Shown: positions 18,333 to 50,281 of the stretch, piece by piece
How the letters are laid out: each line of letters starts with the position of its first letter
Position numbering within the stretch: the first letter of the stretch is position 1
DNA from: Anaerolineae bacterium
GTDB lineage: Bacteria; Chloroflexota; Anaerolineae; Aggregatilineales; UBA3940
Direction of reading: 5' to 3'
Length of the DNA: 64,000 nt
Assembly: GCA_034435035.1 (NCBI GenBank)
Contig: DAOTXW010000040.1
Coordinates: 83,144-147,143, forward strand
Position numbers and translations under genes: made by a program
Notes under the pieces: model-generated
What the model was told of the DNA's origin: nothing
The model's input: only the letters and a program-made list of their open reading frames with translations
The model's database searches: none

Positions 18333-18360
18333 GGCGCAGCCCCGAAAGGGGGTGCACCGT

Positions 18361-23563: not shown

Positions 23564-24486
23564 CAGGGGACATTAAGATTGATGAACACACCGGTCAGCA
23601 GCGTGAGCAGGAATGGCAGCACCATCAAATAGACCACGATCCGACGTTCAAAGACGCCCAGGAACATCAGCGTGCTCTTGATGTCGATCATCGGGCCAAA
23701 CACCAGGAAGCTGAGGATGGAGCCGGTTGTGAACGTTCCGGCAAATGCCAGGGACAGGAACGCATCAACCGTTGAGCACACGGACAAAAGGAACGCCAGC
23801 CCCTGCATGACCAGGACCGATCCCACCGGCCCCGATCCGACGGACAGCAGAACAGCCTGCGGCACCAGAGTCTGAAGCATCGCTGCCAGTGCCGAGCCGA
23901 TGATCAGGTAGCGCGCCATTTCAAAGAACTCATCTGCCGCGACCTGCAGCGCGCGCTGCAGTCGATCGCGCACCGGCATGATCGGGCGCAGCGGGATCAC
24001 TTCGTCGCTGGCGGCCACAGGCGTCATTGGGGCATGTTGGCGCATCAGCCGCGCTGGCTGGGGGTGGAGCGAGAAAACCAGGCCAATGCCGGCAGCAATC
24101 AGGAATCCCAGCCCAAAGCGAGCGAACAGGATGGGCCTCCAGCCATACGCAGCATAGGTGCTGGCGACCACGACCGGATTGATGATAGGGGCTGAGAGCA
24201 GAAAGGCTATACCTGCCGATGCCGGTAAGCCCTTGTTGAGCAGCCGGCGGGTGAGCGGCACGACGCCGCATTCGCAGACCGGAAACGCGAGCCCCAGGAG
24301 TCCGCCGATCAGCACCGCCCGACCAGGCCTGCCCGGGATGAGCCTGAGCATGTCCTCGCGGCTGATGAACTCCTCCACCAGCCCTGAGGCAAGCGTGCCC
24401 AGCAGCAGAAAAGGGATGGCCTCAATCAGGATGCCCAGAAAGACGGTGGTGAAAGTAATGACCTGATCGATCACAGTGCCCCGCAC
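23560..24486 (-). CDS. DUF318/COG0701 (YcgR/ArsP-like) predicted permease
   Basis: [54 protein letters not shown]. Confidence 0.9.
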
Positions 24487-24538
24487 ATGGCCGGCGGAAT
24501 ACCCGTGATCTTACCACGGCCTTTCCAGGTTGCCAGTT

Positions 24539-24624
24539 TCAGCAGACCACAATGGATATCGATGGCAAACCAGAGACCGATGCGCGAAGTTCATCCGCGG
24601 CGTGGTTTCATTGTGGTCTGCTGA
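24539..24624. repeat. Perfect 16-bp inverted repeat (86-bp hairpin- or MITE-like element)
   Basis: tcagcagaccacaatg (24539-24554) and cattgtggtctgctga (24609-24624) are exact reverse complements, with a 54-nt spacer. Confidence 0.9.
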
Positions 24625-24663
24625 GCGTCAATTAGTGGTGACCTGCCCTTTAGAAGTGCCGGA

Positions 24664-25686
24664 TCACTCCCCAAGACCTATCACCAGCTGTGCGGCATTG
24701 GCCCGCATCATGTCCACATAGGTTTCGGCGCCGCTGCCCGGCGCTCCCAGCGAGTCAGTGTACAGGGTAAGTACACGGATATCCGGCCCGAGTTCGGCAG
24801 CAATCGTACCGGCAAGCTCTGCATCGATCGTTGTCTCAACGAAGATGGCCCTGATCCCCTCTGCACGTAGTACATCAATTAGCTGAGCCATCTGACCGGC
24901 CGATGGCTCGGCTACCTCGGCGGCCCCGATGTAGATCGTGTCCACCACCTCAAACCCATAGGCTCGAGCGAAGTACGCCAACGCATCATGGTTGGTCACC
25001 AGCCGACGGTGTTCCGGTGGGATTCGTGCCACCTGTTCGCGGATGTGAGCATCAAGACTCTCCAGCTCTCTCCGATAGGCCGCCGCATTGGCGCGATAGC
25101 TGGTAGCCCCGTCGGGATCGAGAGCCGCCAGGGTTTCGGCCACGTTGGCTACCCAGATCATCACATTGCGCGGATCCTGCCAGGTATGGGGATCTCCATA
25201 CTCATGGGTGTGATCCAGATCCCCGCCCTCCTCGCTCTGATGGTCTTCATCCTCAACGGGGAAGATAATGTCCACACCAGCGGATACCGGTACGACAGCG
25301 GGGCTGCCGCCCAGCATATCCAGGACCGGCTCGAGGCCTTCCTCGAAGTGAAGCCCGTTGACGTACAGCACGTCCGCTTCGCGCAGTAAGGCGAGGTCCG
25401 ATGCGCTGGGCTCGTAGCTGTGTGGGTCCTGCCCGGAGGGTATCAGCACTTCCAGATGGATGCGATCGCTGCCGACGTTGGCGACCACATCGCCGATGAT
25501 ACTGGTGGTGGCCACGACTTGCAGCGGATCGCCTGCGGGGCGCTCTGCCGGGGAGAGCGTCGGGAGCGCCAGTTCCGTGTCCCTCTCTTCGACGAGAGGC
25601 TGGGGAAGCACGGGCTGCGACAGCCCCCCACAGGCGGCCAGGGTAAGTCCCAGGATTACGGGCAGGCAAGTAACAGTCAGGCGCAT
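24664..25686 (-). CDS. Metal (Zn/Mn) ABC-type substrate-binding lipoprotein, ZnuA/TroA family
   Basis: Lipobox LTLAAC; VVATTSIIGD, GQDPHSYEP, NGLHFE, His/acidic loop EDEDHQSEEGGDLDHTHE, DPHTWQDP, HDALAYF, IFVET, YTDSLG. Confidence 0.93.
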   Translation of the reverse strand: MRLTVTCLPVILGLTLAACGGLSQPVLPQPLVEERDTELALPTLSPAERPAGDPLQVVATTSIIGDVVANVGSDRIHLEVLIPSGQDPHSYEPSASDLALLREADVLYVNGLHFEEGLEPVLDMLGGSPAVVPVSAGVDIIFPVEDEDHQSEEGGDLDHTHEYGDPHTWQDPRNVMIWVANVAETLAALDPDGATSYRANAAAYRRELESLDAHIREQVARIPPEHRRLVTNHDALAYFARAYGFEVVDTIYIGAAEVAEPSAGQMAQLIDVLRAEGIRAIFVETTIDAELAGTIAAELGPDIRVLTLYTDSLGAPGSGAETYVDMMRANAAQLVIGLGE

Positions 25687-27481: not shown

Positions 27482-27572
27482 GGATTAAACCCGGATGTGT
27501 TTGCCCGGACCTGCGAGCCATGCTACGATGTCCATCAGGCCGACCGGGACCACAACAGGTGACGACAACAGC

Positions 27573-28352
27573 ATGGATAACAACCAATCAAACTATGACG
27601 CGCTTGATGTCCAGGCGCTGAGTTCCCTCTTGCTGAACGCAGACATGTCCCCGGAGGTTCACCGTGGAGCGCTGTCGGCGCTGGCCCGGCGCAGCCCCTA
27701 TCAGCGCAGCACTCTGATCATCCAGATTCTCCGCAGCGTCATGAGCCACCCTGATCGGTATGATCAGGAAGTCATGATGGCTCTGATTGATATTCTGGGG
27801 TCTGATCCAAATGCTGATGCAACAGCGGCCATGCTGGAAGTGCTGCCCGATATGCTGGAACAGGCCCTTGACCCGAAACGGGCGCTCAAACCGGAGTTTC
27901 GTGAGTACTTCTATCAGACACTTGTGACCAGGCAGCGCGAGGACGATCTGTCTGTCTGGGGTGAGATGCTGCCCAACCTGGAGGCCAAGACACTGGTTGC
28001 AATCCTGGTTGACCCGGTGGCACGGCCCCTGGAGGCACTCGAACCCCTGACTCTGATCGACCGGCTGCGGGAACCCAGCCGGACGAAGGCTCTTATCTCG
28101 GTCATTGCCGGGGTGGCACATACCGGCGGCGATCCCGCCAATGTGCAGAAGGCCGCTGCGCTGATCGCGAACTCAGCGGATGCCGATCAGCTCAAAGAAG
28201 GGATCAACGTCCTGGGCCAGCACTGGGATCGGGCCAAGAAGTCAGGGCGGCGAGCACAGACTGAGATGCTTGAGCGGGCTCTTTCGATCATCGATCCGGC
28301 TCCGCGCACGCCCACAGAGCGCTTGACTGGAAAACGGATGTGGGCTAAATAG
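27573..28352 (+). CDS. Hypothetical all-alpha (HEAT-like) protein
   Basis: Long ORF with amphipathic helices and no recognised motif; ATG 27573 preferred over 27495. Confidence 0.65.
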   Translation: MDNNQSNYDALDVQALSSLLLNADMSPEVHRGALSALARRSPYQRSTLIIQILRSVMSHPDRYDQEVMMALIDILGSDPNADATAAMLEVLPDMLEQALDPKRALKPEFREYFYQTLVTRQREDDLSVWGEMLPNLEAKTLVAILVDPVARPLEALEPLTLIDRLREPSRTKALISVIAGVAHTGGDPANVQKAAALIANSADADQLKEGINVLGQHWDRAKKSGRRAQTEMLERALSIIDPAPRTPTERLTGKRMWAK

Positions 28353-28901: not shown

Positions 28902-29903
28902 ATGAACAAACGACAGCGTCTGGAAGCTACTATCCATGGCGAAGTGGTGGATCGCGTTGCGGTGGCATTGTGGCGCCATTTCCCCGGTGATGACCAGCGC
29001 GCTGACGACCTTGCAGCAGCTCATCTGGCGTTCCAGGCCACCTACGATTGGGACTTCCTGAAAGTCTCTCCCGCCAGCAGTTTCTGCATCCGGGACTGGG
29101 GCGTGGAAGATCGCTGGTCAGGCAATACCGAAGGAACCCGCGACTACGGGCGGCGGATCGTGCAGTCACCGGAGGATTGGCTTAACCTCAAACTGCTCAA
29201 CCCGCTGGAAGGAGCGCTTGGCGAACAGCTGCGCTGCCTGCAGATACTTCACGCGGAGCTGAAGGGCAAAGTCCCGTTTGTCCAGACGGTGTTCAGCCCA
29301 CTGGCTCAGGCCAAGAACATCGCGGGCAACCGCAACCTGGTTGTCCACATGCGTCAGAATGCAGGCCAGGTGCATCACGCACTGCAAACGCTGACCGATA
29401 CCACGATCCGTTTCATTCACGAAGCCAAGGCGCATGGCATTGATGGGATCTATTATGCGGTGCAGCATGCCAGCTACATCCTGCTAAGCGAAGCAGAGTA
29501 TCAGGTATTCGGGCGGCCCTATGACCTGCAGGTGCTGCAGGCCGCCAACGATCTCTGGTTAAATATCCTGCATCTGCATGGCCCTCATGCGATGTTCGGC
29601 CTGGTGGCAGATTATCCGGTGCAGGTCCTGAACTGGCATGATCGGGAGTCGGCGCCGGCCCTTGAAACGGGCCTGAAGAAGATCAAGGGAGCAGCCTCGG
29701 GCGGAGTCGATCGGGATGTCCTGCATCAGGATGATCCGGCGCCTGCTCTTGAACAGGCTCGTGATGCTTTTGCGCGGACCGGTGGCCGACGCTGGATCCT
29801 GGGCACGGGTTGTGTGACTCTCGTCACTACCCCCATGGGCAATCTGCGCCGCCTGCGTGCGCTGGCCGATCACCTTAAGCCCGGGCAGGCAGCTCCGAAC
29901 TAG
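28902..29903 (+). CDS. Uroporphyrinogen-decarboxylase-like (UroD/MtaA superfamily) protein; probably not true HemE
   Basis: TIM-barrel family pattern (FVQTVFSPL, GIDGIYY, ILHLHG, ILGTGC), but the HemE RQAGR motif is absent. Confidence 0.75.
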   Translation: MNKRQRLEATIHGEVVDRVAVALWRHFPGDDQRADDLAAAHLAFQATYDWDFLKVSPASSFCIRDWGVEDRWSGNTEGTRDYGRRIVQSPEDWLNLKLLNPLEGALGEQLRCLQILHAELKGKVPFVQTVFSPLAQAKNIAGNRNLVVHMRQNAGQVHHALQTLTDTTIRFIHEAKAHGIDGIYYAVQHASYILLSEAEYQVFGRPYDLQVLQAANDLWLNILHLHGPHAMFGLVADYPVQVLNWHDRESAPALETGLKKIKGAASGGVDRDVLHQDDPAPALEQARDAFARTGGRRWILGTGCVTLVTTPMGNLRRLRALADHLKPGQAAPN

Positions 29904-29978: not shown

Positions 29979-32900
29979 CTATTCAGCCGGTGAGCCGGCC
30001 GTATCCAGTTCATAAACCTGCACTAACCCGTTGGCCGTATCCACCACGTAAAGGCTGCTGTCTGTAGCCAGCACGGATCCGGCGAGGCCGATCGTTGTGT
30101 AATCGCCAAAGCTGTAAAGGTAGTCCCCTGCTGAGTTGAAGACAATTATCCGGTAGGCCTCGGGATCGGTTACGTACACATTGCCGCTGGCATCCACCTC
30201 GATGTACGGCCGCTCGTTGGTCTGGGCGAACCAGGCATCAACATACCACTGGCGCAGGTAGCGACCTTCCGGATCGAAGACCTGGATGCGCTGATTCCAG
30301 GTATCTGCCACGTAGATCGATCCATCCGGCCCTATCGCCAGCCCAACCGGCTCATCCAGCTCGCCCTCCTGCCCGCCTCCCGTGCCGATCTGCCGGACAA
30401 AGAAGCTCTCCCGGTTGAAGACCACGATCCGTTTGTTGCCGGTGTCCGCGAGGTAGATCCTGCCCTCATTATCGGTAGTGATACCCCGGGGGCCCCAGAA
30501 CGCCAGTGGGTCTCCTACATTAGGGCCTTCAAAGCCCCAGTTGCGCACATACTGCCCCTGAGCTGAGTACTCCACAATCCGGTGGTTCCATGTATCGGCG
30601 ATGTAGATCGTGCCGTCCGGCCCCACTGTGACATCCCAGGGCTCATTGACGGCGTCGGGAGCCGGGGCAAGGCCGTATTTGCTGAGGCTGCGAACGAAGT
30701 TGCCCTGCTGATCAAAGACGACAATACGGTGGTTGCCACTGTCGGCAATGTAGATCAGACCATCTGGCCCCATGCTGATGCCATGCGGGCGAGCCAGCAT
30801 GCCAGCGCCAAATGTTCGAACCGGCACCATCTCCCGGACGCCCTCGGCGTAGGGATCGGTGGCCTGTGCGATCTCGCTAGCCGCTACGCCGTAATCCCAT
30901 ACCTGGGCAAAAACATCCTTGCGGATGTAGACGCGCATACGCTCCGATACAGGCCACCGGCTGAGGGAGAAGTCTGGGCGTGCGCCCCGGTAAAGTGAGA
31001 CGGCATCGGCGTATGTGCTGTAGTCCCGGCGGAAGAAGATGTCGCGGATTCCCCGCTGGAGCCCGGGATCGGTCAGCACATCAGCCAGCATAGCCCGCAT
31101 CCGGGGCCACTCCTCGTAGCCGAAGTAATCCTGCATCGGCCACCACATCCGGATGTACTCGAACTGGTAATACCGCCCTCCCAGGAGCGGTTCAACTTTC
31201 GCCCAGTTGCCGGGCCCGGCGAGGATCACGGGGGCGTCTCCGATCAGGCCGCGCGATGGCTGTTCGCCGTAGTACACGGCATTGTAGTAATTGCGCAGAT
31301 ACCATGAAAGCGGCCACGAAACCTGGTTGTCGTAAGCAACGCGAAGCCCATAACCATCGGTGGTCTTGAGGGAAATCTCCTCAATCTGGTCCATCACCTG
31401 CTTCACCGCCCCCGCCGAGTGCGCGTAAACCAGATACTCATTGGCCTGGTCGTAGTTCACGAACGAGGCGATCAATGCGGTGCGGGCAGTAAGGAAGGCC
31501 AGCCACACGACCAGCCACAGCGCTGTCAGCCTCCAGAGCTGGGCGATCGCCAGACGGCGGGCTGTTGTAAACAGAGCTGCCACGGTCGCCGCCAGTACAA
31601 TGACGGCAGCTAGCCAGGCATAAGTAGCATAGAGATCGCTGACCCGCACTCCCTTGAAGACTCCCTGCTGGAAGCGTTCGGGAATCACCGTCGTGCAGGG
31701 TAGCTTCAGCGCCCCCAGGAGGACCTCGCCCCAGCCATGTGCCCCCGGCGGCGCTATGCCAGCGGTGGCTTCCACCGCCAGCGGGGGGGGAGGAACGACA
31801 GCTGAGCAGATCGGCCCCGTCACACGTAGAAGGGACACCAGCAGAAGCGGCAGCAGCAGCAGAACCAGCCAGGTGCTACCCTGGACAATCCGCTTCCACT
31901 CGATGCTCTCCAGCAGGCGCCCGACCATCCATCCGCCCAGCAGGATGAAGGGCGCTGTCAGGTGAGTGGTGAGCCACGGCATCTTCTCGCCGGCGATGCT
32001 GTAGGCCACGATGTTCAGGACGCCCCAGTAGGCAGTGAACGCGAAGATCGGGAACGCGATGGGAGCCTGAAGGTCTATGAATAAGCGCTGCCCGGGCCCG
32101 GCAGCCGCAGCATCGTTGCGGCCATCGGATGGGGGCAGGGATGCGGGCCGCAGGGCTGAGCGCACCAGCCGGCCAAGCCCAAGCGCACCGGCTGCCGCCG
32201 ATAGTATCACCGGCAGGAACTCGTATATCGGCAGCATGATCATCAGGTAGTAGTACCAGGGCTGGTTGCCGCGCTTGACCCCCTGCTGCTCCAGCCAGTA
32301 CGCAAGCGACCCGATTACCCCGGTCCCGAGTCCTGCCCCGTTGGTAAACATGGTCGTAAAGAAGAAGAGGAAGAACAACCAGAAGACGGCGCCGATGGCC
32401 CACCAGCGGCTGGCAAGGGCTGCCTGTACCCAGTCGAGCAGGTCCGGCTCCACCTCGATCTCGATGTTGTCTGCGCCCTCCGGGATCGATACCTGCGCCA
32501 GTTCCTCGGCTGTGAGTGCGTTAACCGGGACGCGAATACGGCGCCTGATCGGCTTCTGCATCCCCCATGCCACGCCCACCCCGATGCTGATGAACAACAT
32601 GGGCAGCGTGAACAGCAGGCTTGTGGCAACACCCTGTGAGGTCTCATCCATCGGGTTAAATCCCGCAGCATGGATCAGGAAAGGCGTCAGCATGGGCAGG
32701 ATCAGGGACCCCAGAACAATCATCACATCGAGTTCGGGGAATTGACGCAGCTGCTTCCACTGGCCTACCAGCACAGAGCCTGCCATAACGACCAGCGAGA
32801 GCGCCGAAGCGCCCATCAGCGCGATCTGCACCGGATCTCGCTCCGCGGTGACCGGTGCGGCCTCGTCCGGCAGCCCGGCAGCCGGATCAACCGGCGCGGC

Positions 32901-33698
32901 GGTCTCCGTCCCCCCGATGGTCTCTGCCGCGTGCTCCTGCAGCAGAAGATAGACGCCCAGAGCCGTCAGCGAGATCAGGGTGGCGATCAGGGCCGCCGCA
33001 AAGATCAGATTGAGCCGCCTGCTGTCCCAGCGCACATCCAGCAGCCGGGTGACAAAGTAGAGGGTCAGGAAGCTTCCGAATATGGCCACGTAGATAAATG
33101 ACACTTCCTTGGTCGCATACAGAATGGCGAAGCCAAAGGAAAGCCACAGCAGATAGCGGTTGCGCCGGGATTCGATGTAGTGCCAGATCGCCAGCACCAT
33201 GATCAGGGCGCCCAGCAGTGCTGGCATGTCCTCGCGAATGTAGCGCGAGTAGTACATGATTAGCGGTGAGATCAGGAACATGAAGGACGCTGCAAGCGCG
33301 CCGGTGCGTCCAAGCCAGCGGCGCGCCGCAATCGGCAGCATCACCACGATGATGCCGACCACGGCGGGGTAGATGCGTGCGCTGAAATCGCTGTCGCCGA
33401 AGAGCAGGTACATCAGAGCGGTGACGTGAAAGAGCAGCGGGCCGTGCATCAGCGGGGTATGCGCAAACCCGTCGCCGCGATAGAGTCCCCAGGAATACCG
33501 CGTGTGGAGACTTTCGTCGTGGCTCATCACACGAGCGCCGAGATCCCAGAAGCGTGTCAATACAGCCAGTATGAAGATGAGGGCGTAAGCCAGCTTCTCC
33601 CCATCGATGACCAGCAGCCGCGCGAGATGGCTTTCGAGTGCCGCCAGCGGGCGGGAAGCCGCATCAGGAGGTGTCAATGCCTGCTCTGTTGACGTCAT
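29979..33698 (-). CDS. TIGR03663-type GT-C (PMT_2-like) membrane glycosyltransferase fused to a six-bladed NHL beta-propeller
   Basis: RFWDLGARVMSHDESLH, HGPLLFH, YSRYIREDM, ATKEVSFI, GEKMPWLTTH, YAHS. Six NHL blades (PHGISMGPDGLIYIADSGNHRI and others). Confidence 0.88.
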   Translation of the reverse strand: MTSTEQALTPPDAASRPLAALESHLARLLVIDGEKLAYALIFILAVLTRFWDLGARVMSHDESLHTRYSWGLYRGDGFAHTPLMHGPLLFHVTALMYLLFGDSDFSARIYPAVVGIIVVMLPIAARRWLGRTGALAASFMFLISPLIMYYSRYIREDMPALLGALIMVLAIWHYIESRRNRYLLWLSFGFAILYATKEVSFIYVAIFGSFLTLYFVTRLLDVRWDSRRLNLIFAAALIATLISLTALGVYLLLQEHAAETIGGTETAAPVDPAAGLPDEAAPVTAERDPVQIALMGASALSLVVMAGSVLVGQWKQLRQFPELDVMIVLGSLILPMLTPFLIHAAGFNPMDETSQGVATSLLFTLPMLFISIGVGVAWGMQKPIRRRIRVPVNALTAEELAQVSIPEGADNIEIEVEPDLLDWVQAALASRWWAIGAVFWLFFLFFFTTMFTNGAGLGTGVIGSLAYWLEQQGVKRGNQPWYYYLMIMLPIYEFLPVILSAAAGALGLGRLVRSALRPASLPPSDGRNDAAAAGPGQRLFIDLQAPIAFPIFAFTAYWGVLNIVAYSIAGEKMPWLTTHLTAPFILLGGWMVGRLLESIEWKRIVQGSTWLVLLLLPLLLVSLLRVTGPICSAVVPPPPLAVEATAGIAPPGAHGWGEVLLGALKLPCTTVIPERFQQGVFKGVRVSDLYATYAWLAAVIVLAATVAALFTTARRLAIAQLWRLTALWLVVWLAFLTARTALIASFVNYDQANEYLVYAHSAGAVKQVMDQIEEISLKTTDGYGLRVAYDNQVSWPLSWYLRNYYNAVYYGEQPSRGLIGDAPVILAGPGNWAKVEPLLGGRYYQFEYIRMWWPMQDYFGYEEWPRMRAMLADVLTDPGLQRGIRDIFFRRDYSTYADAVSLYRGARPDFSLSRWPVSERMRVYIRKDVFAQVWDYGVAASEIAQATDPYAEGVREMVPVRTFGAGMLARPHGISMGPDGLIYIADSGNHRIVVFDQQGNFVRSLSKYGLAPAPDAVNEPWDVTVGPDGTIYIADTWNHRIVEYSAQGQYVRNWGFEGPNVGDPLAFWGPRGITTDNEGRIYLADTGNKRIVVFNRESFFVRQIGTGGGQEGELDEPVGLAIGPDGSIYVADTWNQRIQVFDPEGRYLRQWYVDAWFAQTNERPYIEVDASGNVYVTDPEAYRIIVFNSAGDYLYSFGDYTTIGLAGSVLATDSSLYVVDTANGLVQVYELDTAGSPAE

Positions 33699-33722: not shown

Positions 33723-34220
33723 TCAGGGTGCATCGGGCGCGCGGACAGCCAGTGTTGGCTCTGCCAGCCGAGCGGGTGTGATCGTCGCCGCCGTGCCGGT
33801 CATTGTCCCGGTAGTTACATAGGCGGTCGCTGCCGGGGTAACCATGACAGGTGAAGCGGTCTCGCTCAATGCCGTGCCGGATGACAGCCGATTGCCCGGA
33901 TGCTGCATGCCCAGAGCCGCCGGCACCAGAAACATCAGCAGGCTGATGATTGCAGGCAGAAGATAGCCCGGGATATGGCGCTGCGCGGGCTGCCGCAGGG
34001 CCTCGGACACCGGTTGCCACCATTGCCTGACGACACTATCCGGCAGGGGGCGGCTCTGTCCCAATGCGCTTCGCAGGTCCGCGGCAGTCTGCTCATACAG
34101 CGCCAGTCGGCACAGGCACCGCTCGCAGCGGCGTATATGCCGATTCACCTGCGCTGCGGCCTTTGGGCTGAGCTGTCCGGTGACATAGGCGGCCAACAGA
34201 TGGTCAATGTGCCCTATCAT
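33723..34220 (-). CDS. Zinc-binding anti-sigma factor (ZAS/zf-HC2) with one TM helix and a Thr-rich tail
   Basis: LLAAYVTGQL...HIRRCERC (HxxxCxxC); TM YLLPAIISLLMFLVPAALG. ATG 34220 overlaps the sigma-factor stop (ATGA). Confidence 0.85.
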   Translation of the reverse strand: MIGHIDHLLAAYVTGQLSPKAAAQVNRHIRRCERCLCRLALYEQTAADLRSALGQSRPLPDSVVRQWWQPVSEALRQPAQRHIPGYLLPAIISLLMFLVPAALGMQHPGNRLSSGTALSETASPVMVTPAATAYVTTGTMTGTAATITPARLAEPTLAVRAPDAP

Positions 34221-34810
34221 CGTCCGAACGCTCCCTGCAGCAGCGCTTCGCGCTGACTGGCCAGCAGGTTGTACAGCGCTTCGTGCGCCAGCCGAACCCG
34301 CGACTCGGCGGTTTTCTGCGGGCATCCCAGCACCTCAGCCATCGCCTGGTAGGTCAGCCCATCGAAATATCGCAGCACAACCGCCTCACGCAGCTTCGGC
34401 GACAGCTGCGCCAGCGCAGCGAACAGCGCATCATGCACCCCATGCTGCTCCACCACCGATTCCGGGTGATCCTCCCCGGTCGACAGGTGGTCAGCCGCAT
34501 CGCCTGCCAGCATTACCGGAAGCCAGCGGCGGCGCTTGTTGCGGCAGCGGCTCAGAGTAATCATGTACAGCCATGTCTTGAAGGCTGATCGGGCGGGGTC
34601 GAACTGCCCGAGATTGCGGAACGCATAAATGAAGCTGTCCTGAACCACTTCCTCGGCATCCTGCGCATTCAGCAGGATCCCGTAAGCCAGCCGGTAGGTG
34701 GGCTGGACGTGCTGCTCGTACAGGGCTGCGCAGGCCAGCTGATCGCCAGCCTGTGCTCGGGCGATCAGGGCCTGAAGCGCGTTCGGGGCAGCATGCGATC
34801 CGCTATCCAT
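34217..34810 (-). CDS. ECF RNA polymerase sigma-70 factor
   Basis: AQAGDQLACAALY, DAEEVVQDSFI, FKTWLYMIT, LSPKLREAVVLRYFDGLTYQAMAEVLG, ESRVRLA. Start at 34810 or 34852. Confidence 0.93.
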   Translation of the reverse strand: MDSGSHAAPNALQALIARAQAGDQLACAALYEQHVQPTYRLAYGILLNAQDAEEVVQDSFIYAFRNLGQFDPARSAFKTWLYMITLSRCRNKRRRWLPVMLAGDAADHLSTGEDHPESVVEQHGVHDALFAALAQLSPKLREAVVLRYFDGLTYQAMAEVLGCPQKTAESRVRLAHEALYNLLASQREALLQGAFGR

Positions 34811-34882
34811 GGTCGGGGCCGCAGGTTCTATGCATTGCATCAGAGTATACACACACAGAAATACTTCCCCTCACTGCGGAGT

Positions 34883-36697
34883 CTACTGTGGCCGATCCGC
34901 AGAGACCAGCCGATAGATATCCTGCCGCACCCAGAGAATCATCCGCTGATCTGCCGGAGCAGTAGGGGCAGTGCGATAAATCACCCACTGCGCTGCCTGT
35001 GGTATGGTCATTCCTGCGAGCGACCAGTCCTGGATCACGACGAAATCCTGCCCCACATAAGCCGATCCCAGCGCGGGGTCCGAACCGGACGCCGGCGTGA
35101 TCGCCATGACCGAGTCAACGGTGGGGTTGACCTGCTCCACGAAGCTCACATGAGTGAAGTCCCGCAAAGCCCAGGCGACCGCGCCATCGGGTTCGGTCTG
35201 CACCGTGAGGCTGGCATCATGCGGGTAGCCGACCGTCAGCTTGCTGACTTCGCGGGCAGCATCGGCCAGCATATCCATCCCAATCTGTACACGTTCGGTA
35301 TGAAATGCCTCAAAGGGGCTGGCTGAACGGGCAAATGCCAGCGCTCCGCTCTGCCCGCCTGCGGCGATCAGCGTGATGGCCAGCACAGCGAACCCCAGGC
35401 CGCGCCATGCTGTGCGCGGCTCCCACATGCTGGCTACCGTCAGCCACATGACCACCACCAGCAGGCTCCATAAAATGACCAGCACCAGATCGAGCGGCAC
35501 ACCGGAAGATGGGCTGCCTGAGCCGGTCAGCGCGGGGATGGTCAGCATCCGCGGCGCTCGCAGATGCTGCGCCAGCCCGGCCAGGATCATGCCGAAGAAC
35601 GCCACGCTGCCCAGCGCGTGCGATCGCGCTGCCCATGCCGGCGCAGAATCGCCCAGAGACAGCAGGGCAGCGATCGCTTTTCCGGCGAGGCCGGCCAGCG
35701 GGATGGTAGCCCACAGCGTGTGCTCCGGCAGCGCTCCTGGATAGATAAGCACGGCAACAAGAGCAGCAAACCCCCATGCTGCCAGGAACCGCTCGTGCGA
35801 GTGGGCCGACTGGGAAGCGAGCCAGATGCCGATCAGGCCAAACAGCAGCGTAGCCGGCTCGTAGATCGCAATCACCAGCCCTGTCCACGGCGCGCCCGCC
35901 TGGCGAGTCACCAGGCCACGTCCGAAGGCAGCCAGCAGATCGCCTGCTGCTCCCAGCCCATCCGGTATCAGGAAGAACAGAGTGCCAAAGACGACCAGCG
36001 CACCGGCAAGCCCTGCTGTGAAATATCGCCATGACCAACCCCGGAGCCGATCCCGATCAGCGCCCTCAGTGAATGTCCCCTCCTCATCGGTCAGGAAGGT
36101 ATAGGCGGCCCCGGCGCCGAGCGCCAGCAGCCCCAGCGGGGCGGCGGGGTCGGAGAGGAGCGCCAGACCGGCTGCTCCGCCTGCGAGCAGCACTGGCCGC
36201 AAAGATCCCGACTGCCAGTAGGCTGCACAGGCCGCGAGCACCCCGATCAGCGCCATCATGGCCATGCTGTGCCCGCTGACCTGCCGCGCAGCTGCGGTGC
36301 CGGCTGGTGAGAGGGCGAGCAGCAGCGCAGCGATCAGCGCGGGCAGCTTGCCCAGCCGGGCGCGGAACAGCAGGGGGGCAAATACCAGCCCCAGGCTGGC
36401 CAGCATCGGAAAGGCGCGGGCGGCGGCAGTGGATGGGCCCAGCACCGCAAAGCTGCCCAGGATTCCTGAAAACACGGTCGGGCTGATGATGATCCCGGCA
36501 CCGGCGGTATCTGGGTACAGCAAATGGAGGGCAGCAAACGCCTGCCGTGCCTCCATCTCACCCAGTGAGGGAGTGGATAGTCGAAGCGCCCTCAGGATCA
36601 CGGCGATGATGGCGATGAGCGCATAAGCAAGCGCCTCAACAGATACAGCGATCCGGGGGGCGGGAGATACCTCAGTATGAGCGGAAACAGCGTTCAT
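34883..36697 (-). CDS. GT-C-like multi-pass membrane protein, divergent paralog of the TIGR03663 module
   Basis: Collinear with the 29979..33698 protein (ILRALRLS..LGEMEA; ARAFPML; ALSP; AWALRDF; MILWVRQDIY). ATGA overlap with the DUF2298 stop. Confidence 0.75.
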   Translation of the reverse strand: MNAVSAHTEVSPAPRIAVSVEALAYALIAIIAVILRALRLSTPSLGEMEARQAFAALHLLYPDTAGAGIIISPTVFSGILGSFAVLGPSTAAARAFPMLASLGLVFAPLLFRARLGKLPALIAALLLALSPAGTAAARQVSGHSMAMMALIGVLAACAAYWQSGSLRPVLLAGGAAGLALLSDPAAPLGLLALGAGAAYTFLTDEEGTFTEGADRDRLRGWSWRYFTAGLAGALVVFGTLFFLIPDGLGAAGDLLAAFGRGLVTRQAGAPWTGLVIAIYEPATLLFGLIGIWLASQSAHSHERFLAAWGFAALVAVLIYPGALPEHTLWATIPLAGLAGKAIAALLSLGDSAPAWAARSHALGSVAFFGMILAGLAQHLRAPRMLTIPALTGSGSPSSGVPLDLVLVILWSLLVVVMWLTVASMWEPRTAWRGLGFAVLAITLIAAGGQSGALAFARSASPFEAFHTERVQIGMDMLADAAREVSKLTVGYPHDASLTVQTEPDGAVAWALRDFTHVSFVEQVNPTVDSVMAITPASGSDPALGSAYVGQDFVVIQDWSLAGMTIPQAAQWVIYRTAPTAPADQRMILWVRQDIYRLVSADRPQ

Positions 36698-39174
36698 GGC
36701 GCTTCCTCGATCAGCGGCTGATCGGCCCGGTAAATTACCACATCCTGATCGCGATAGACCGCTGGCAGAAACCGATCAAACTTCTGCAGGCCGGCAGGTG
36801 GGGCGAAGGCCGGGTTGCGCTCCAGCGTGCCCACGAAGATGTATGTCACGTTGTAGCGCTGCAGGAGGCCCTGCGCCAGATCGATACTGGGAGTCTGGTA
36901 GATACGCAGAATATCCTCCTCGCGCGTGCCCGCCAGCTCGGCATACCGCGCGCCGCGCCACTGGCGTTCATGGCCCGGCCAGCCCAGCACCGTAGGAATG
37001 CCGGTGGCCATCGATACCCGGGCATAGTAGGAGTACTGCCCCCCTACTGCCTCCAGAACCACAGCCCCCGGTTCAGCATTCTGTTCCAGCCACCGGATGC
37101 CGGCATAATCGCCGGGGTAGCTGCGGCGGATAAAGTCCAGTCCATCCAGCGTTGGCTGCGCAGTCTGAAAATCGCCCAGCCTGGCGGGAATGGCAAATGC
37201 CGGGTAAACCAGCCCCCCCGCGATCAGCGGCACGATGAGGATGCTCGCAATGATCTGTATAGCTCGCTGCCGATGCGCCAGCAGCTCATGCGTGGCGTAG
37301 GCCGAAGCCACTGCAAACAGGATCCAGGCTGCGTAGTAGAACTTGAAGACCGTGTTCAGCCGCTGGCCGAAGACATCCCGCAGGTACACAAACTCGGGCC
37401 CCAGTGTCAGCAGTGCCCCGGTCAGAATGAGAAGGGTGACAAATCCATTCGCGGGATGAATCGAGGCCGGAGTCGACTCGCCCGACGGTGCGCTCCGGGG
37501 AGGGCGGGGAATCAGGGCCGCCAGGCAGAGGACGATGAGGCCTGTCAGGAAGAGCGCGGTCAGCGGGTGGGCCAGCCGATGCCTGAGCACCTGTCCGGCC
37601 AACCCGGGCAGCCGCGCGCGGATTGCAGCGTCCGGCTGCCCCTGCAGCTGCGCATCCACACTGATGGCCAGAAATGCGCGCGCGCCGGGATCCAGGCTCA
37701 CTGCCACGGCGCTCAGGATAAGCATAGCAGCGACCAACATCGCCAGCAGCAGCAGGGCTCCCTGCATGCCGGTGCGCCAGTCCATGTGCCGCCCATGACG
37801 GATGGCCCGATCTACCAGGAACATCCAGATAATCACCTGGAACGGGCCGAACATCACCAGGAACTGGTGCAGGCGAGTCGGGAACAGAGCGTTGGGCAGG
37901 ATCCCGCCCGCCTGCGATCCGAAGCTGATATACCAGGGAAGGTAAGCCGCTATTCCGCCTGCCAGGATGCCCAGCCCCGTCAGCCCGGCCCGGCCCAGAT
38001 CCGCGCCCGATAGAGTCCCGGCTCGGAGGATGCCGCGCAGGGCCAGTGCGCTGATCAGAATAAACAGGTAGATCGGGAGATCCCACGTGTTGAGGAAGGC
38101 GAGGCCGCCGAAAACAACGATACAAAGAGCCAGCTGGCTCCGATCGGGCTCCTCGCGCTGATGCACGAGTCCGAATGCCAGGGCCAGTGCCAGCAGCACA
38201 AACGGCAGCGCCAGCACATGCGGGTGCATGTCGCCAAGCAGAAAACTGAAGAATGGGAACTCGTCAATTGGTTGCAGCCCGATTGCCACCCCGGTCAGGT
38301 CACGGTCACGCACCACGCGGGAGGCACGCCACCACCACCAGAAGCGCCACCGGCTGGGGGGCCACAGAGGCCCACTGATAGGGTCGGCCAGGTCTTCCAG
38401 ATCAAGCCACGCCCAGAACCCGGCCCCAAGCAGCGGGAACTGAAGCGCCCGCACGAGCTCCAGCAGGCCCGCCAGATTTCCCAGCAGGGCGACGAACAGC
38501 GGCCCCAGCAGGGCAGTCATGGGCGCGCCGGACTGGTGTGACCGGCGGGCGGCTGTCAGGTTGTAGACCAACCCATAGCTGCCCAGCAGCGTCAGGGCGA
38601 ATAGCAGGGCGATCCCGAGATTGAACGCCACGCCGCCGGATACTCCGGTCAGATCGGCCATCAGAGCGATCAGCACGTAACCGAAGTAGTAGTAGCTGAT
38701 TGCATAGCCCGAAAGCCACGGATCGAGCGGCGGGAATGCCGGGCTGCGCAGCACGCTGGCCAGAAAGGCCATCTCCATGGGCTTCTCGGTACCGGCGATG
38801 TCAGGCGTATGAGCGCGGAAGAGCGTCCAGCTCGCCAGCGCGGCGACGAACAGCGCTTCGGCGGTGAGTATCACCGCCCTGTGGCTGCTGAACCAACGCC
38901 CCAGGCTGTCAGTACGATCAGGGCGGCTCTGGTAGATCCACAGTGAGATGCTCAGCACGATCAGAGCGGCCAGGATGATGCCGCCCGGTGTGTTCTTCAC
39001 AAAGCCCAGGCTGCCCAAGAGCCAGAAAACGTATCCGGTCAGCAGCAGGCCCAGCGCCCTGCTGAGGGTGTAGCCACGATCGGGCAGGCCCGGCAGCAGG
39101 CGAAAGGCCAGCGGCCACGCAAGACCGCCAATCAGGGTGATGGCCGCATACCAGCCCAGGATGGCGCTCACCAC
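36694..39174 (-). CDS. DUF2298 / Chlor_Arch_YYY (TIGR03662-type) membrane protein
   Basis: GTEKPMEMAFL, PPLDPWLSGYAISYYYFG, IDEFPFFSFLLGDMHPHV, FLNTWD, RLNTVFKFYY, TGIPTVLGWPGHERQWR. Confidence 0.9.
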   Translation of the reverse strand: MVSAILGWYAAITLIGGLAWPLAFRLLPGLPDRGYTLSRALGLLLTGYVFWLLGSLGFVKNTPGGIILAALIVLSISLWIYQSRPDRTDSLGRWFSSHRAVILTAEALFVAALASWTLFRAHTPDIAGTEKPMEMAFLASVLRSPAFPPLDPWLSGYAISYYYFGYVLIALMADLTGVSGGVAFNLGIALLFALTLLGSYGLVYNLTAARRSHQSGAPMTALLGPLFVALLGNLAGLLELVRALQFPLLGAGFWAWLDLEDLADPISGPLWPPSRWRFWWWWRASRVVRDRDLTGVAIGLQPIDEFPFFSFLLGDMHPHVLALPFVLLALALAFGLVHQREEPDRSQLALCIVVFGGLAFLNTWDLPIYLFILISALALRGILRAGTLSGADLGRAGLTGLGILAGGIAAYLPWYISFGSQAGGILPNALFPTRLHQFLVMFGPFQVIIWMFLVDRAIRHGRHMDWRTGMQGALLLLAMLVAAMLILSAVAVSLDPGARAFLAISVDAQLQGQPDAAIRARLPGLAGQVLRHRLAHPLTALFLTGLIVLCLAALIPRPPRSAPSGESTPASIHPANGFVTLLILTGALLTLGPEFVYLRDVFGQRLNTVFKFYYAAWILFAVASAYATHELLAHRQRAIQIIASILIVPLIAGGLVYPAFAIPARLGDFQTAQPTLDGLDFIRRSYPGDYAGIRWLEQNAEPGAVVLEAVGGQYSYYARVSMATGIPTVLGWPGHERQWRGARYAELAGTREEDILRIYQTPSIDLAQGLLQRYNVTYIFVGTLERNPAFAPPAGLQKFDRFLPAVYRDQDVVIYRADQPLIEEAP

Positions 39175-44510: not shown

Positions 44511-44557
44511 ACGCTAATCATACACAGGGACCCGGTGGATTCCTCAGTCTTCTGGCA

Positions 44558-46909
44558 CTAACCCGACCGTACAACAAACAGGATGAAATCGCGGCCAGCG
44601 GTGGCACTCCGATAGTAATGGAGCTCGCCGGCCGGGAAGCGTTCCTGGAGGATGCGCTGGCTTTCTACATCCTGCGGATGAACAATGAATACCAGCGGGC
44701 GGGCCGCCATGCGCTCCGGCAGGCTGTTCAGGTAGGTGGTCAGCATAGGCACGTCCAGAATCGCCTGATCGAATTCCAGATCGCCCGCTTCGATGCCGAT
44801 AGCGCGGTAGTCATGCCAGAAAGGCCAGCCCTGAAGCCACACACCATCCAATGGGGCCTCCGGGCCAATCTGTTCCCGTATCGCTGCGGCGACCTCGCCG
44901 GGATTGAGCGCCGAGTTCCGGTAGGATGTGGCATACAGGTCGAAATAGATGTGGAAATTGAGATAGGCCGCTCCGCCGATGAGGGTTGCGATCAGAACGG
45001 CTCCTACCGCGATACCGGGAAGCCGCCCCATCACCATACTCCATCGCTGGCGAATCAGCGCCAGTGGCCATGCAGCCAGCACAAATACGATCGGGATTGT
45101 GCCGCTGCCCCGGGTGGCGCTGGGATTCTCGATCGGGAATGCAACAGCCAGCGCGGACGGCAGTAGTAAGATCAATCCGGCTGCGATCAGGAAGGCATCG
45201 ACCGGATCGCGCCGTAGTTTCAGCCTTACCATCCATCCGAGCAGCCCCAAGATAAACAACCCTCCGGTGATGCGATCCAGGAGCGGAGCGCCAGGCACCG
45301 CGCTGAACCACGAAGAGTCGCCGCGCACATTGAACATGCCCAGCGCCTTGCGGTAGTTATCCGCCAGCACTGAACTGACTGTGCCGTTAATGGCGACTTC
45401 GTTGCTGGTAGTCCGGTTGATGACCCGGTTCCAGAGATCCTGTGGGTAGTCATGCCACACCCTGAGCATGGGTACGAAGATCACTGCGGCTATCAGTCCG
45501 GCAAACAGCAGATTCAACCCCTGCCGGGCGGCGGTCTGGAGGGCGATTGTCGCGAGGAGCCGGGCGTCGGATTGGCCTGCACGGCTGGCTGCCAGGGCGC
45601 GCAGCGCCGGGCCGGCGACTGATGCAAGGCAGGCAGCGATAGCCACCAGCGGAGCGATCCGGAGCGCCTGGTAGGCATACATGCCTATCCCCAGCCAGAT
45701 ACCTGCCCAGATCCATGCCCGCCGGGATCCGGTACGAATTGATCTCGCAAGAACCATCAAGATCAACGCCATTATCAGGGGTGTCAGTACGATGCGCAGC
45801 CCCAACCGTCCGAGCAGAGTATGCCACCACGAGATCGCCAGCAGCGCCGCCGCATATAAACCTGTCTCGCGGTCAACGATCTCCCGGCCCAGCACAATCA
45901 TCAGCGGAATCAGCGCCAGGGCCTCCAGCGCAGTGGTTAGCTTCAGTGCCAGGAAGGTCATCCCGACTCCGGGCAGCCGGGCAATCAGAGGAATCAGATA
46001 GAACTGGATCGCTTCACGCCCGGCGTTGTTGGTGAAGAAGACATGGTGCTCGCCCTGCGAGACCCGGTAGGCGTCAAGCAGCTTTTCCACATGATCGCTG
46101 GTCATCTCGTTGGGGACCGCATCCAGGCGATAAAACCGGAAGAAGGCTGCCAGAGCCATCATCCCCAATGTAAGAAGGATCGGGCCTGCTGCGCGGCTCC
46201 AGTGCGGGCGGGTTTCTCTGGCCCTACGGATCGCCGCTGACCAGCCAGCGGCGATCGCACCGGGGTCGCGCTCGGAGACCGTCAGGAGCCACAGGATGAT
46301 ACTTAACATCCAGGTTGCTATGCCGGCCGTGGTGAAGCGGTTGCCTGCGGTGAGAAAGTAAGTTGCTGCTGAAAGGGCCAGTGCTGCCAGCCCCATCGCC
46401 AGCCGCCGGTTCAGTACCCGATCTTCGATGAGCGCCAGCGGCCGCGCGGGGCCGCCCCCGGTCGTCACTGGTCCCCGGCAGAGCAGCCCACCGTCTGGCG
46501 GCGCGATCTCGAACATCAGGAGGCCCAGCCAGATCAGCGCCGCCATCCCGATCAGCAGGCCGGCCGGGCTGCCCGATGCGCTACTCAGGGCAGATTCGGC
46601 CAGATAGACAAGGAAAACGGCCAGGACCGCCCCGATGCCGATCACGGCAATACGGCCCGCTCCGGCTCCCTCGACCGGCGCGGCAGAGCTGCCGGGGTAG
46701 TGGATCACGCCCGGTGTGTCCAGATCGGTCAGCTCAATCGGAGCCGGCTCCGATTGGGGTATCGCGGGCTCGGCGCGCCGGATTCCCGGCAGGATCGATA
46801 CATGCTCATCCTGCGGCGGGAAGAAGACTGCCTGCCAAACATCGCGCCACGTGATGCGATCCTCGGCTGGCTCATTCGGGGCAGGGGGGGCACTGGAAGC
46901 GTGAGGCAC
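44558..46909 (-). CDS. GT39/PMT_2 (ArnT-like) GT-C membrane glycosyltransferase
   Basis: FFRFYRLDAVPNEMTSDHVEKLLD, FFTNNAGRE, GRLGLR, GMYAYQALR, NPSATRG; many TM segments. Confidence 0.82.
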   Translation of the reverse strand: MPHASSAPPAPNEPAEDRITWRDVWQAVFFPPQDEHVSILPGIRRAEPAIPQSEPAPIELTDLDTPGVIHYPGSSAAPVEGAGAGRIAVIGIGAVLAVFLVYLAESALSSASGSPAGLLIGMAALIWLGLLMFEIAPPDGGLLCRGPVTTGGGPARPLALIEDRVLNRRLAMGLAALALSAATYFLTAGNRFTTAGIATWMLSIILWLLTVSERDPGAIAAGWSAAIRRARETRPHWSRAAGPILLTLGMMALAAFFRFYRLDAVPNEMTSDHVEKLLDAYRVSQGEHHVFFTNNAGREAIQFYLIPLIARLPGVGMTFLALKLTTALEALALIPLMIVLGREIVDRETGLYAAALLAISWWHTLLGRLGLRIVLTPLIMALILMVLARSIRTGSRRAWIWAGIWLGIGMYAYQALRIAPLVAIAACLASVAGPALRALAASRAGQSDARLLATIALQTAARQGLNLLFAGLIAAVIFVPMLRVWHDYPQDLWNRVINRTTSNEVAINGTVSSVLADNYRKALGMFNVRGDSSWFSAVPGAPLLDRITGGLFILGLLGWMVRLKLRRDPVDAFLIAAGLILLLPSALAVAFPIENPSATRGSGTIPIVFVLAAWPLALIRQRWSMVMGRLPGIAVGAVLIATLIGGAAYLNFHIYFDLYATSYRNSALNPGEVAAAIREQIGPEAPLDGVWLQGWPFWHDYRAIGIEAGDLEFDQAILDVPMLTTYLNSLPERMAARPLVFIVHPQDVESQRILQERFPAGELHYYRSATAGRDFILFVVRSG

Positions 46910-48974: not shown

Positions 48975-49107
48975 AGCATGCGTGCTGCGCGGGTATTGCA
49001 TGGGGCGCAGGCCGATGCCAGCGCTCCTGAGGTATCGATCAGTTCCCCTGTTGAGTGTAACATGGTGCCATCAGGGTCGACCATCCGGCCGGCCCGACTG
49101 TGCCGCC

Positions 49108-50136: not shown

Positions 50137-50183
50137 AACTGTGCGCCGATGTTTCCCCGGGCCTCTGAGCCCGGAACGGGCGG

Positions 50184-50212: not shown

Positions 50213-50281
50213 AGCGCTCCCTCCAGCAGTTTGCCTCTTTCTGCATGGTCATTTCTCGCAAGCTGACGTATCCTAGATGCC

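Follow-up and report, generated by a model that had tools for sequence, protein, structure and literature searches.

A coupled gene pair for an ECF sigma factor and its anti-sigma factor

The 64-kb window analysed here (the whole stretch of 64,000 nucleotides from an Anaerolineae bacterium) carries, in region 33723-34810 on the minus strand, two translationally coupled genes that together fill this region. One encodes a sigma factor of the extracytoplasmic function (ECF) type and the other a zinc-binding anti-sigma (ZAS) factor with a single membrane helix. The pair is embedded in a cluster of genes for large membrane proteins related to glycosyltransferases of the C type (GT-C), and very probably serves as the dedicated regulator of this cluster, as judged from gene context, a shared promoter-like motif and comparison with related loci. 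The pair and its parts are arranged as follows.

34810..34217, minus strand: ECF sigma factor of 197 amino acids (aa) with sigma-2 and sigma-4 regions (Pfam and NCBIfam models)
34220..33723, minus strand: anti-sigma factor of 165 aa; start codon ATG at 34220, in an ATGA overlap with the stop codon of the sigma gene
Within the anti-sigma factor, residues 1-76: ZAS domain, with predicted zinc ligands H4, H28, C32 and C35
33962-33906, minus strand: membrane helix of the anti-sigma factor, residues 87-105 (from hydrophobicity; helix 87-104 in the AlphaFold2 model)
33905-33726, minus strand: predicted extracytoplasmic tail of the anti-sigma factor, residues 106-165 (60 aa)

The sigma factor matches the Pfam models Sigma70_r2, Sigma70_r4_2 and Sigma70_ECF, with region 3 being absent, and scores 91 bits against a cutoff of 42.9 for TIGR02937. 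Having sigma-2 and sigma-4 regions only, it is an ECF (group 4) sigma factor. The anti-sigma factor is identical to database protein P0001 and scores 27.1 bits with the Pfam model zf-HC2 (cutoff 22.2). Residues H4, H28, C32 and C35 are invariant across 40 members of the family, and H28-x3-C32-x2-C35 forms the HxxxCxxC pattern. With this pattern, an upstream ligand and coupling to an ECF sigma gene, the protein has the features of a class I ZAS factor, for which binding of zinc and of the sigma factor is predicted.

An AlphaFold2 model built from a 40-sequence alignment places helices at residues 6-14, 19-31, 33-54, 61-76 and 87-104, with the predicted local distance difference test score (pLDDT) being 85-97 for the four N-terminal ones. 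In a Foldseek search with the anti-sigma factor, the top 12 matches all came from ChrR, RslA and RskA and their anti-sigma domains, at E-values of 0.35-6, which are not significant. Arg and His residues lie on the N-terminal side of the membrane helix. The layout, with one membrane helix and the sigma-binding domain inside, is that of anti-sigma factors released by regulated intramembrane proteolysis (RIP), and such a release is predicted here. A preliminary description of this locus had named a ZAS domain and one membrane helix, both of which are borne out by the zf-HC2 match, the invariant ligands and the single helix at residues 87-105.

Two longer gene models were rejected. The 200-aa open reading frame (ORF) in a mechanical list, which begins at ATG 34325, is an over-extension of the anti-sigma gene, since the conserved N-termini of its relatives and the ATGA overlap place the start at 34220. 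The start of the sigma gene at GTG 34852 was discarded in favour of 34810, on the grounds of conserved N-termini and of the position of the promoter-like motif.

The GT-C cluster surrounding the pair

All the neighbouring genes of the pair lie on the minus strand, and the order of transcription is: accessory genes, the genes for the 1780-, 826- and 604-aa proteins, sigma, anti-sigma and the gene for a 1239-aa protein with an NHL domain. The genes of this island are given below; none of its first four, identified with Pfam and NCBIfam models, has a promoter-like motif.

49108-50298, minus strand: flippase-like LPG_synthase_TM protein
47772-49001, minus strand: GT4 glycosyltransferase
46913-47779, minus strand: methyltransferase
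44558-46909, minus strand: PMT_2-like protein, 783 aa
39168..44474, minus strand: fused GT-C protein, 1780 aa, with an N-terminal PMT_2 part and a C-terminal Chlor_Arch_YYY/DUF2298 module (Pfam, NCBIfam; orthologues in 31 loci)
36694..39174, minus strand: DUF2298/Chlor_Arch_YYY (TIGR03662) membrane protein, 826 aa (571.6 bits)
34883..36697, minus strand: GT-C-like membrane protein, 604 aa (PMT_2 23.7 bits, TIGR03663 35.9 bits, both below cutoff)
29979..33698, minus strand: Agl23-like GT-C protein, 1239 aa (224 bits with TIGR03663, whose cutoff is 126), fused to a six-bladed NHL beta-propeller at its C-terminal end (residues about 940-1239, E 1e-43)

The pair had been described as sitting between two GT-C genes, and this holds: the flanking genes at 36697..34883 and 33698..29979 both match PMT_2, the former below the Pfam cutoff. 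The genes for the 1780-, 826- and 604-aa proteins overlap by 4-7 nt. The 1239-aa protein is probably encoded on the same transcript as the anti-sigma factor, because its gene starts only 24 nt past the anti-sigma stop codon. Within the window, TIGR03662 reaches 571.6 bits for the 826-aa protein and 475.3 bits for its other match, with the cutoff being 300. Orthologues of the 604-aa gene were found in 37 loci, always inside the cluster. For the 1780-aa gene, a start at GTG 44510 was rejected because this codon lies only 7 nt past the -10-like block of the promoter-like motif; the start is probably ATG 44474.

All but one of 36 orthologues of the 1239-aa protein have the SHDE and HGP motifs, and the NHL domain is retained in every full-length orthologue that could be checked. 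The SHDE motif provides the acidic Asp-Glu pair that marks the first outer loop of enzymes of the protein O-mannosyltransferase (PMT) type; sugar transfer to protein Ser or Thr is putative. The GT-C proteins of the island match PMT_2 (PF13231), TIGR03663 and TIGR03662 only, with no match to PF02366 (PMT) and no MIR or PMT_4TMC domain. In haloarchaea, Agl23 is a putative flippase for the hexose-phosphodolichol used in the synthesis of N- and O-glycans (PMC11182771). When the GT-C proteins were used as queries in a sequence search of the PDB, either the NHL domain alone was matched (with PknD among the matches) or nothing was, and no solved relative of the membrane modules was found.

A further GT-C gene lies in the window outside the island. 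Its 629-aa product (61101-62990, minus strand) matches both PMT_2 and PF02366 (36 bits), and is a candidate for a general protein O-mannosyltransferase, one that might act on exported Thr-rich segments without involvement of the island.

Conservation of the pair and of its linkage to the cluster

Related loci (designated L with a number) were taken with 10 kb on each side. Nearly all of them come from metagenome-assembled genomes (MAGs), and a few have frameshifts (e.g. L003) or doubtful taxonomic labels. A word-indexed homologue search with the anti-sigma factor returned only the protein itself; an exhaustive HMMER search gave 106 representatives, most of them 165-185 aa long and with 24-47% identity. 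Homologues of the sigma factor number more than 2000, the best of which, with 55-71% identity, are from Anaerolineae and other Chloroflexota. The sigma factor is thus far better conserved than the anti-sigma factor.

A genome scan seeded with the sigma alignment gave 80 loci, and in 45 of these the sigma gene stands beside at least one of the same GT-C genes. Most of these 45 linked Chloroflexota loci hold the whole cluster, so that synteny of the pair with GT-C genes, on which the preliminary description had staked its idea, is found elsewhere. Two gene orders were observed. The first, that of the window, is 1780 / 826 / 604 / sigma / anti-sigma / 1239-NHL; the second is 1780 / sigma / anti-sigma / 826 / 604 / 1239-NHL. 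Wherever a related locus could be read, the anti-sigma gene follows the sigma gene, and no neighbour accompanies the pair more constantly than the NHL-bearing GT-C gene. Upstream of the GT-C operon, the gene for the 783-aa protein recurs in L003, those for GT4 and the 783-aa protein in L058, and all three in L071. When the linked loci were compared all against all, conservation was confined to the sigma factor, the anti-sigma factor and the GT-C families, and the flanks differ.

The unlinked relatives of the sigma factor pair with anti-sigma factors of 490-915 aa that bear large outer domains. In one and the same MAG, an unlinked pair of this kind (L038) occurs together with a cluster-linked pair (L018). 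By this partnering of the unlinked sigma factors with large-domain anti-sigma factors, the short tail is specific to the cluster-linked paralogue.

Several variant loci were noted. The protein encoded after sigma lacks HxxxCxxC in L029 (10563-10950), L030 (10552-10960), L042 (10534-10950) and L049 (5449-5870), and in all four it keeps the membrane helix and a Pro/Ala/Thr tail with an ending of the TPAP..P type. A gene resembling pseudouridine synthase is inserted before the NHL-bearing GT-C gene in L029, L030 and L042, with the other GT-C genes not being nearby; L049 has the same insertion, and no GT-C gene was detected on its 6.7-kb contig. In L003 (10515-11000) the anti-sigma frame is split by a frameshift, which is either an assembly error or the mark of a pseudogene. 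Orthologues of the NHL-bearing GT-C protein in L023 (11052-14990) and L031 (2971-6705) have Thr-rich runs of their own (e.g. TATATATATST), and in L009, L012, L018, L022 and L032 an acidic extension with SPTP- or PTPTP-type sequence follows the propeller. These runs and extensions could be further acceptor-like segments.

A promoter-like motif at both operon heads

In the closest relatives of the window a two-block element, TGAGGAA-N14-GTGTATAAT, is located upstream of the sigma gene. Allowing up to three mismatches, there are exactly two matches to it in the 64-kb window, whereas 0.11 would be expected.

34873..34844, minus strand: promoter-like motif P(sig), TGAGGGG-N14-GTGTATACT, in the 72-nt gap from the 604-aa GT-C gene to the sigma gene
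44546..44517, minus strand: promoter-like motif P(gtc), TGAGGAA-N14-GTGTATGAT, with one mismatch, in the gap 5' of the 1780-aa GT-C gene

The string GTGTATAHW occurs a single time in the 64 kb, at P(sig). The motif is held at both positions, before the sigma gene and before the 1780-aa gene, in L004 and L059 as well. In an alignment of 15 motif sites the T-AG and GTGTAT blocks are invariant, and the 14-nt spacer and the flanks are unconserved. Over 675 kb of linked loci, 27 matches lie on the gene strand and none on the opposite strand. The motif stands between sigma and anti-sigma in Promineifilaceae-type loci, and in loci of the second gene order the upstream block reads TCTCACAAAT.

The -10-like GTGTAT block is found a short way 5' of the sigma gene in 27 of the 45 linked loci. 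Of the Chloroflexota relatives that are unlinked, 10 of 11 have it there, but only 1 of 24 distant relatives, which belong to other phyla, with a background of 0.058 per 370 nt; by this distribution upstream of sigma genes, it behaves as a -10 signature of this sigma clade. A scan of metagenome contigs for the exact motif gave mostly chance matches in AT-rich contigs, with 6 of 120 being real sigma loci. Among contigs above 58% GC with an exact match, this sigma gene starts 56-164 nt downstream in 6 of 9. A generic scan for sigma-70 promoters and terminators in the window remained at chance level.

Given a motif at these two positions, we infer positive autoregulation of the sigma factor and its control over at least four GT-C genes. 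The regulon, judged by sequence alone, would then include envelope genes, as the preliminary description had required of it, since the promoter-like motif of the sigma gene is also present upstream of the GT-C operon.

Five Promineifilaceae-type loci also have, at matching positions within the coding sequence of sigma, an almost perfect copy of the motif, TGAGGAATC...GTGTATAAC (L018 ~10021-10051, L020 ~10030-10060, L025 ~10024-10054, L026 ~9124-9154 and L027 ~8688-8718). It may be an internal promoter or simply conserved coding sequence. On L129, an unrelated metagenome contig of high GC content, an exact match lies 5' of a gene for a small protein and a gene that is URO-D-like by eye only.

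Composition and motifs of the extracytoplasmic tail

The tail of the window anti-sigma factor consists of 60 residues, among which are 12 Thr, 4 Ser, 7 Pro and 12 Ala, and includes the run TTGTMTGTAATIT and the C-terminal sequence TPARLAEPTLAVRAPDAP. The Thr and Ser counts and the sequence quoted in the preliminary description are as stated there; the length, given as 59, is corrected by one. With a Thr content of 5.0% in 41 window proteins, the binomial probability of at least 12 Thr in 60 is 3.6e-5, and no further 59-aa stretch with 12 Thr exists among the window proteins. The tail DNA contains no tandem repeat, by which an origin of the Thr run in repetitive DNA was rejected. Residues 105-165 have no secondary structure in the AlphaFold2 model (pLDDT 53-76). 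The extracytoplasmic part is therein predicted to be disordered, as in a disordered sensor, and its composition is of low complexity and rich in Thr, Pro and Ala. Its composition and predicted topology fit the profile of a bacterial O-glycosylation acceptor, namely Ser and Thr in a disordered, Pro/Ala-rich exported segment. The absence of a folded sensor domain, as first described, agrees with the model, yet the tail is not featureless, for it has conserved short motifs.

These tails are 48-88 aa long in 37 cluster-linked anti-sigma factors, with 15.1% Thr, 15.1% Pro, 17.1% Ala and 0.8% Lys; in 87 family representatives, Thr and Pro amount to 11.6% and 15.4%. By comparison, Thr makes up 4-5% of the cytoplasmic domains in these proteins, and 8.1% of the first 60 residues past the membrane helix in the unlinked anti-sigma factors. 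Thr enrichment, which had been named as a prediction for orthologues, is thus a conserved family trait of the tails, and the tails constitute half of all Thr-rich segments in 859 ORFs of related loci. The Thr content per tail ranges from 1.5 to 25% across family members, and the best-conserved, near-invariant residues are prolines, not threonines. In the family tails Thr is highest in the middle, and Pro climbs to 23-29% in the last fifth.

Short motifs are frequent in the tails. Compared with composition-matched shuffles, which ignore the relatedness of the sequences and therefore overstate significance, the tails contain 80 copies of TxTxT where within-tail shuffles give 18, and 106 of 124 tails have PxP among their 20 terminal residues where shuffles give 40; P.P.[AST]P is found in 29 of 88 tails against 1.2 expected, and P..[DN].T in 23 of 88 against 3.2 expected. 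The TP dipeptide is also enriched in the family tails. Many members of the window clade have SPx[LV][DN]xT..PP about 15-30 residues past the membrane helix, and many of the tails in this clade terminate in [IVLM]PAPxAP. Promineifilaceae-type tails have ATATxTxxPTAT runs and a terminal TPAPxPTP[IVL]A, and those in the second gene order terminate in PTPAFVLPPTPP. Such short motifs, kept in an otherwise fast-diverging and disordered segment, suggest that the tail is recognised by something.

Comparison with known systems

The architecture has precedents, the nearest of which is the SigD-RsdA pair known from Corynebacterium glutamicum and Mycobacterium tuberculosis. There, too, an ECF sigma factor is held by a single-pass anti-sigma factor with a predicted-disordered outer part (PMC11175481). 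SigD-RsdA is induced by defects in GT-C-made arabinogalactan, and RsdA is released by MarP at site 1 and Rip1 at site 2 (PMC11175481). In contrast to the 60 residues of the window anti-sigma factor, the outer region of RsdA has about 160 aa; RsdA does not lie within the GT-C gene cluster that it monitors; and the proteolysis demonstrated for RsdA is a prediction for the window protein. In SigI-RsgI of Bacillus subtilis, a disordered extracytoplasmic region was likewise proposed as a sensor of the envelope state (PMC9732909). Unlike in the window pair, the anti-sigma factor RsgI is no ZAS protein and carries a SEAL domain with autoproteolytic activity, SigI lies outside the ECF group, and the target is peptidoglycan homeostasis rather than a GT-C cluster. 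The names RsdA and RsgI are absent from the structure and family matches of the window anti-sigma factor, no direct sequence comparison was made, and the likeness to both systems is a functional one only.

As to the cytoplasmic part, the window anti-sigma factor resembles the class I ZAS domains of ChrR (2q1z), RslA (3hug) and RskA (4nqw) in its His-(x)n-His-x3-Cys-x2-Cys ligands and predicted four-helix domain, with the Foldseek E-values being non-significant, as given above. ChrR is soluble and has a cupin sensor domain, whereas the window anti-sigma factor is membrane-anchored and has a disordered tail only.

The promoter consensus of SigW of B. subtilis is TGAAAC-N16-CGTATA. The window motif, when read as TGAGGA-N16-TGTATA, has the same layout of two blocks. 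SigW-RsiW and SigM-YhdL/YhdK are, like the window pair, ECF switches with small outer parts, and respond to envelope stress (for SigM, PMC11081497). Their regulons and inducers differ from those of the window pair, and the likeness is at the general ECF level.

For the Thr-rich part, LpqH may be compared. According to PMC5341126, which cites Herrmann et al. 1996 on this point, a Thr cluster in a disordered, membrane-anchored segment of LpqH carries O-mannose, and loss of the sugar is linked to cleavage. The idea in the preliminary description builds on this principle. LpqH is not a signalling protein, the enzyme in its case is a true PMT (GT39), and it has no known link to a sigma factor.

Proposed mechanism and alternative explanations

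What would the pair do in the cell? At rest, the sigma factor would be kept at the membrane by the single-pass anti-sigma factor, through its ZAS domain on the cytoplasmic side. Once freed, the sigma factor would transcribe from the two TGAGGAA-N14-GTGTATAAT promoters, one of which would serve sigma, anti-sigma and the NHL-bearing GT-C gene, giving autoregulation, and the other the three-gene GT-C operon. The sensor would be the 60-residue disordered extracytoplasmic tail. Its motifs, namely the juxtamembrane SPx[LV][DN]xT..PP type of many relatives, the Thr-rich middle and the Pro-rich C-terminal PxPxAP, would be sites recognised by envelope proteins, either a site-1 protease or the machinery of the cluster itself, or both. 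The state of the envelope layer built by the cluster, or of the machinery, would decide whether the tail is cleaved, and cleavage would set off RIP.

The layers of this proposal are not equally strong. Computation gives firm support to the architecture of the pair, to its conserved embedding in the cluster, to the presence of the motif ahead of both operons, and to a conserved composition of the tail with its motifs. That the pair is a dedicated regulator of a conserved envelope GT-C cluster is, as said at the outset, very probable. The complete model, in which a dedicated ECF switch carries tail motifs as recognition sites whose accessibility is set by the layer or machinery that the cluster builds, is put forward tentatively, with a chance that we place slightly short of even. 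We infer recognition of the motif by the sigma factor, proteolytic release at site 1 and site 2, as is usual for single-pass anti-sigma factors, and the sensor role of the tail.

Several observations weigh against the proposal. The assignment of the motif as the promoter of this sigma factor draws on position and conservation only. The -10-like block is common to paralogous sigma factors, and in Promineifilaceae-type loci GTGTATAAA is kept upstream of the 1780-aa gene while the -35-like block differs. The exact-motif scan of metagenome contigs revealed no further members of the regulon. Neither a protease gene nor an obvious substrate gene is conserved with the cluster over the 45 loci, and no protease gene was found in the window. 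The window anti-sigma factor itself fits the juxtamembrane motif only loosely, and the significance of the tail motifs is overstated to the extent that the tails are related.

An alternative interpretation, which takes up the idea of the preliminary description, is that the GT-C enzymes of the island O-glycosylate the Thr residues of the tail and thereby shield it from the site-1 protease; under-glycosylation would then lead to degradation of the anti-sigma factor and to induction of the island by the freed sigma factor, with the anti-sigma factor acting as a pseudo-substrate that reports the flux of the pathway. The three-fold and conserved enrichment of Thr, about twice that of the juxtamembrane linkers of unlinked anti-sigma factors, speaks for it, as do the enriched TxTxT runs and TP dipeptides and the share of the tails, one half, in the Thr-rich segments of the 859 ORFs. 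So do the conserved synteny with PMT_2-type GT-C genes, the conserved SHDE motif and the promoter-like motif upstream of the GT-C operon. Agl23 is connected with the hexose-phosphodolichol supply for N- and O-glycans (PMC11182771), and glycosylation of the Thr cluster of M. tuberculosis LpqH is tied to proteolysis (PMC5341126, as cited there from Herrmann 1996). On the other hand, a Thr content that varies between 1.5 and 25%, and the near-invariance of Pro rather than Thr, speak against it. The island enzymes lack a PF02366 match and a MIR domain, and their action on proteins is putative; the set of four GT-C proteins, a GT4 enzyme, a methyltransferase and a flippase-like protein resembles rather a pathway for glycan or glycolipid assembly, and the tail could be glycosylated independently of the island by the PF02366-positive product of 61101-62990. 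No paper describing a glycosylated anti-sigma sensor was found, and the architecture alone needs no glycosylation mechanism, because outer regions consisting only of disordered sequence have already been described in RsdA (PMC11175481) and RsgI (PMC9732909). Of the refuting outcomes named in the preliminary description, the three open to computation (tails poor in Thr in orthologues, no synteny with GT-C genes elsewhere, a regulon without envelope genes) were not observed. We consider this explanation unlikely. The same holds for the broader statement that the tail is a pseudo-substrate of the regulated GT-C machinery, in which either its Thr residues are glycosylated or its Pro motif is held and site-1 cleavage is thereby blocked; this too we would call rather improbable. 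If it were true, sigma activity would report the flux or capacity of extracytoplasmic glycosylation, that is, glycosylation-gated RIP, a type of feedback for which no description was found in the literature.

The conserved prolines lead to another possibility, in which the tail would attach, by its Pro-rich C-terminal motif, to the NHL propeller of the probably co-transcribed GT-C protein, or to an outer loop of another enzyme of the cluster. The propeller would in that case be the real sensor, supplied in trans, and its occupancy by ligand or substrate would determine whether the tail is held or released to the protease. The tails have a conserved PxPxAP-type motif at their very end, none of the full-length orthologues that were open to checking lacks the NHL domain, and NHL propellers act as extracellular sensor domains elsewhere, e.g. 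in PknD. The gene for the NHL-bearing protein is separated from the anti-sigma gene by only 24 nt in the window, and remains linked to the pair even in L029, L030 and L042, whose vicinity lacks the other GT-C genes. Two genes intervene between them in the second gene order, however, and we regard such docking as quite improbable. It is also conceivable that the tail is a mere spacer or degradation handle, with sensing taking place in the membrane, through lipid-carrier availability as for SigM, or in the cytoplasm, where the zinc site of the ZAS domain would be oxidised. In favour of this, the four zinc ligands do not vary among the 40 family members, GT-C enzymes take polyprenyl-phosphate-linked donors while SigM signalling responds to undecaprenyl-phosphate levels (PMC11081497), and Pro/Ala-rich juxtamembrane linkers are common in related anti-sigma factors too. 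Yet the conserved short motifs and the narrow range of tail length, 57-88 aa, in a fast-diverging region argue for a function of the tail, and HxxxCxxC has been lost in L029, L030, L042 and L049 while the character of the tail was kept. A tail without any sensing role is given little credence, and the dedicated switch with a recognised tail, as proposed above, is the explanation that we favour.

Novelty and implications

New here are the family as such, the strictness with which it is tied to an uncharacterised GT-C cluster in Anaerolineae-type lineages, the predicted promoter, and a motif-bearing Thr/Pro tail as the only outer part of an anti-sigma factor. Literature searches for the linkage of such a pair with this cluster, or for a glycosylated anti-sigma sensor, returned nothing relevant. 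A full-text search on DUF2298 yielded, by the titles and abstracts of its results, nothing on this cluster, and the main text of the ECF reclassification paper contains no Chloroflexota or GT-C-linked group.

Chlor_Arch_YYY (DUF2298, TIGR03662) and Agl23-like (TIGR03663) proteins are widespread in Chloroflexota and archaea, and their role in bacteria is essentially uncharacterised. The pair and its recognisable motif, which travel with the cluster across Anaerolineae-type lineages, offer two practical handles: removal of the anti-sigma factor should turn the cluster on, and a promoter reporter could be used to seek the inducing signal. If the tail were glycosylated or bound by the enzymes that it controls, the locus would be a compact case in which a pathway uses a disordered pseudo-substrate to sense what it produces.

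Other features of the window

Next to the cluster, a gene of the URO-D family (28902-29903, plus strand) is convergent with the NHL-bearing GT-C gene, and adjoins the cluster in L004 and L006 as well. The gene beyond it (27495-28352, plus strand) encodes a 285-aa protein without a Pfam match, which is conserved in L002, L004 and L006.

Further away, a glycogen-type gene cluster (3319-11483, plus strand) encodes a GH57 branching enzyme, a starch/glycogen synthase, a glucose-1-phosphate nucleotidyltransferase, a GH57 amylase/4-alpha-glucanotransferase and a GH57/DUF3536 protein. Two tandem paralogues of about 510 aa are encoded at 16800-19866 (plus strand), each with a terminal PPC (pre-peptidase C-terminal) domain and no other Pfam match. 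A trio resembling metal uptake genes (22787-25686, minus strand) comprises a ZnuA-type binding protein, an ArsP_1 permease and a DUF1980 protein, and beside it are genes for a thioredoxin-fold AhpC/TSA protein and a PD40/Big_5 propeller protein.

The last part of the window, 56000-64000, differs in composition. Its GC content is 0.66-0.685 and its GC content at the third codon position 0.83-0.88, compared with ~0.60-0.65 and 0.66-0.78 elsewhere in the window. This shift could reflect acquired DNA or an assembly join. The segment carries a gene pair for an ATP-binding cassette (ABC) exporter and the PMT-type gene at 61101-62990.

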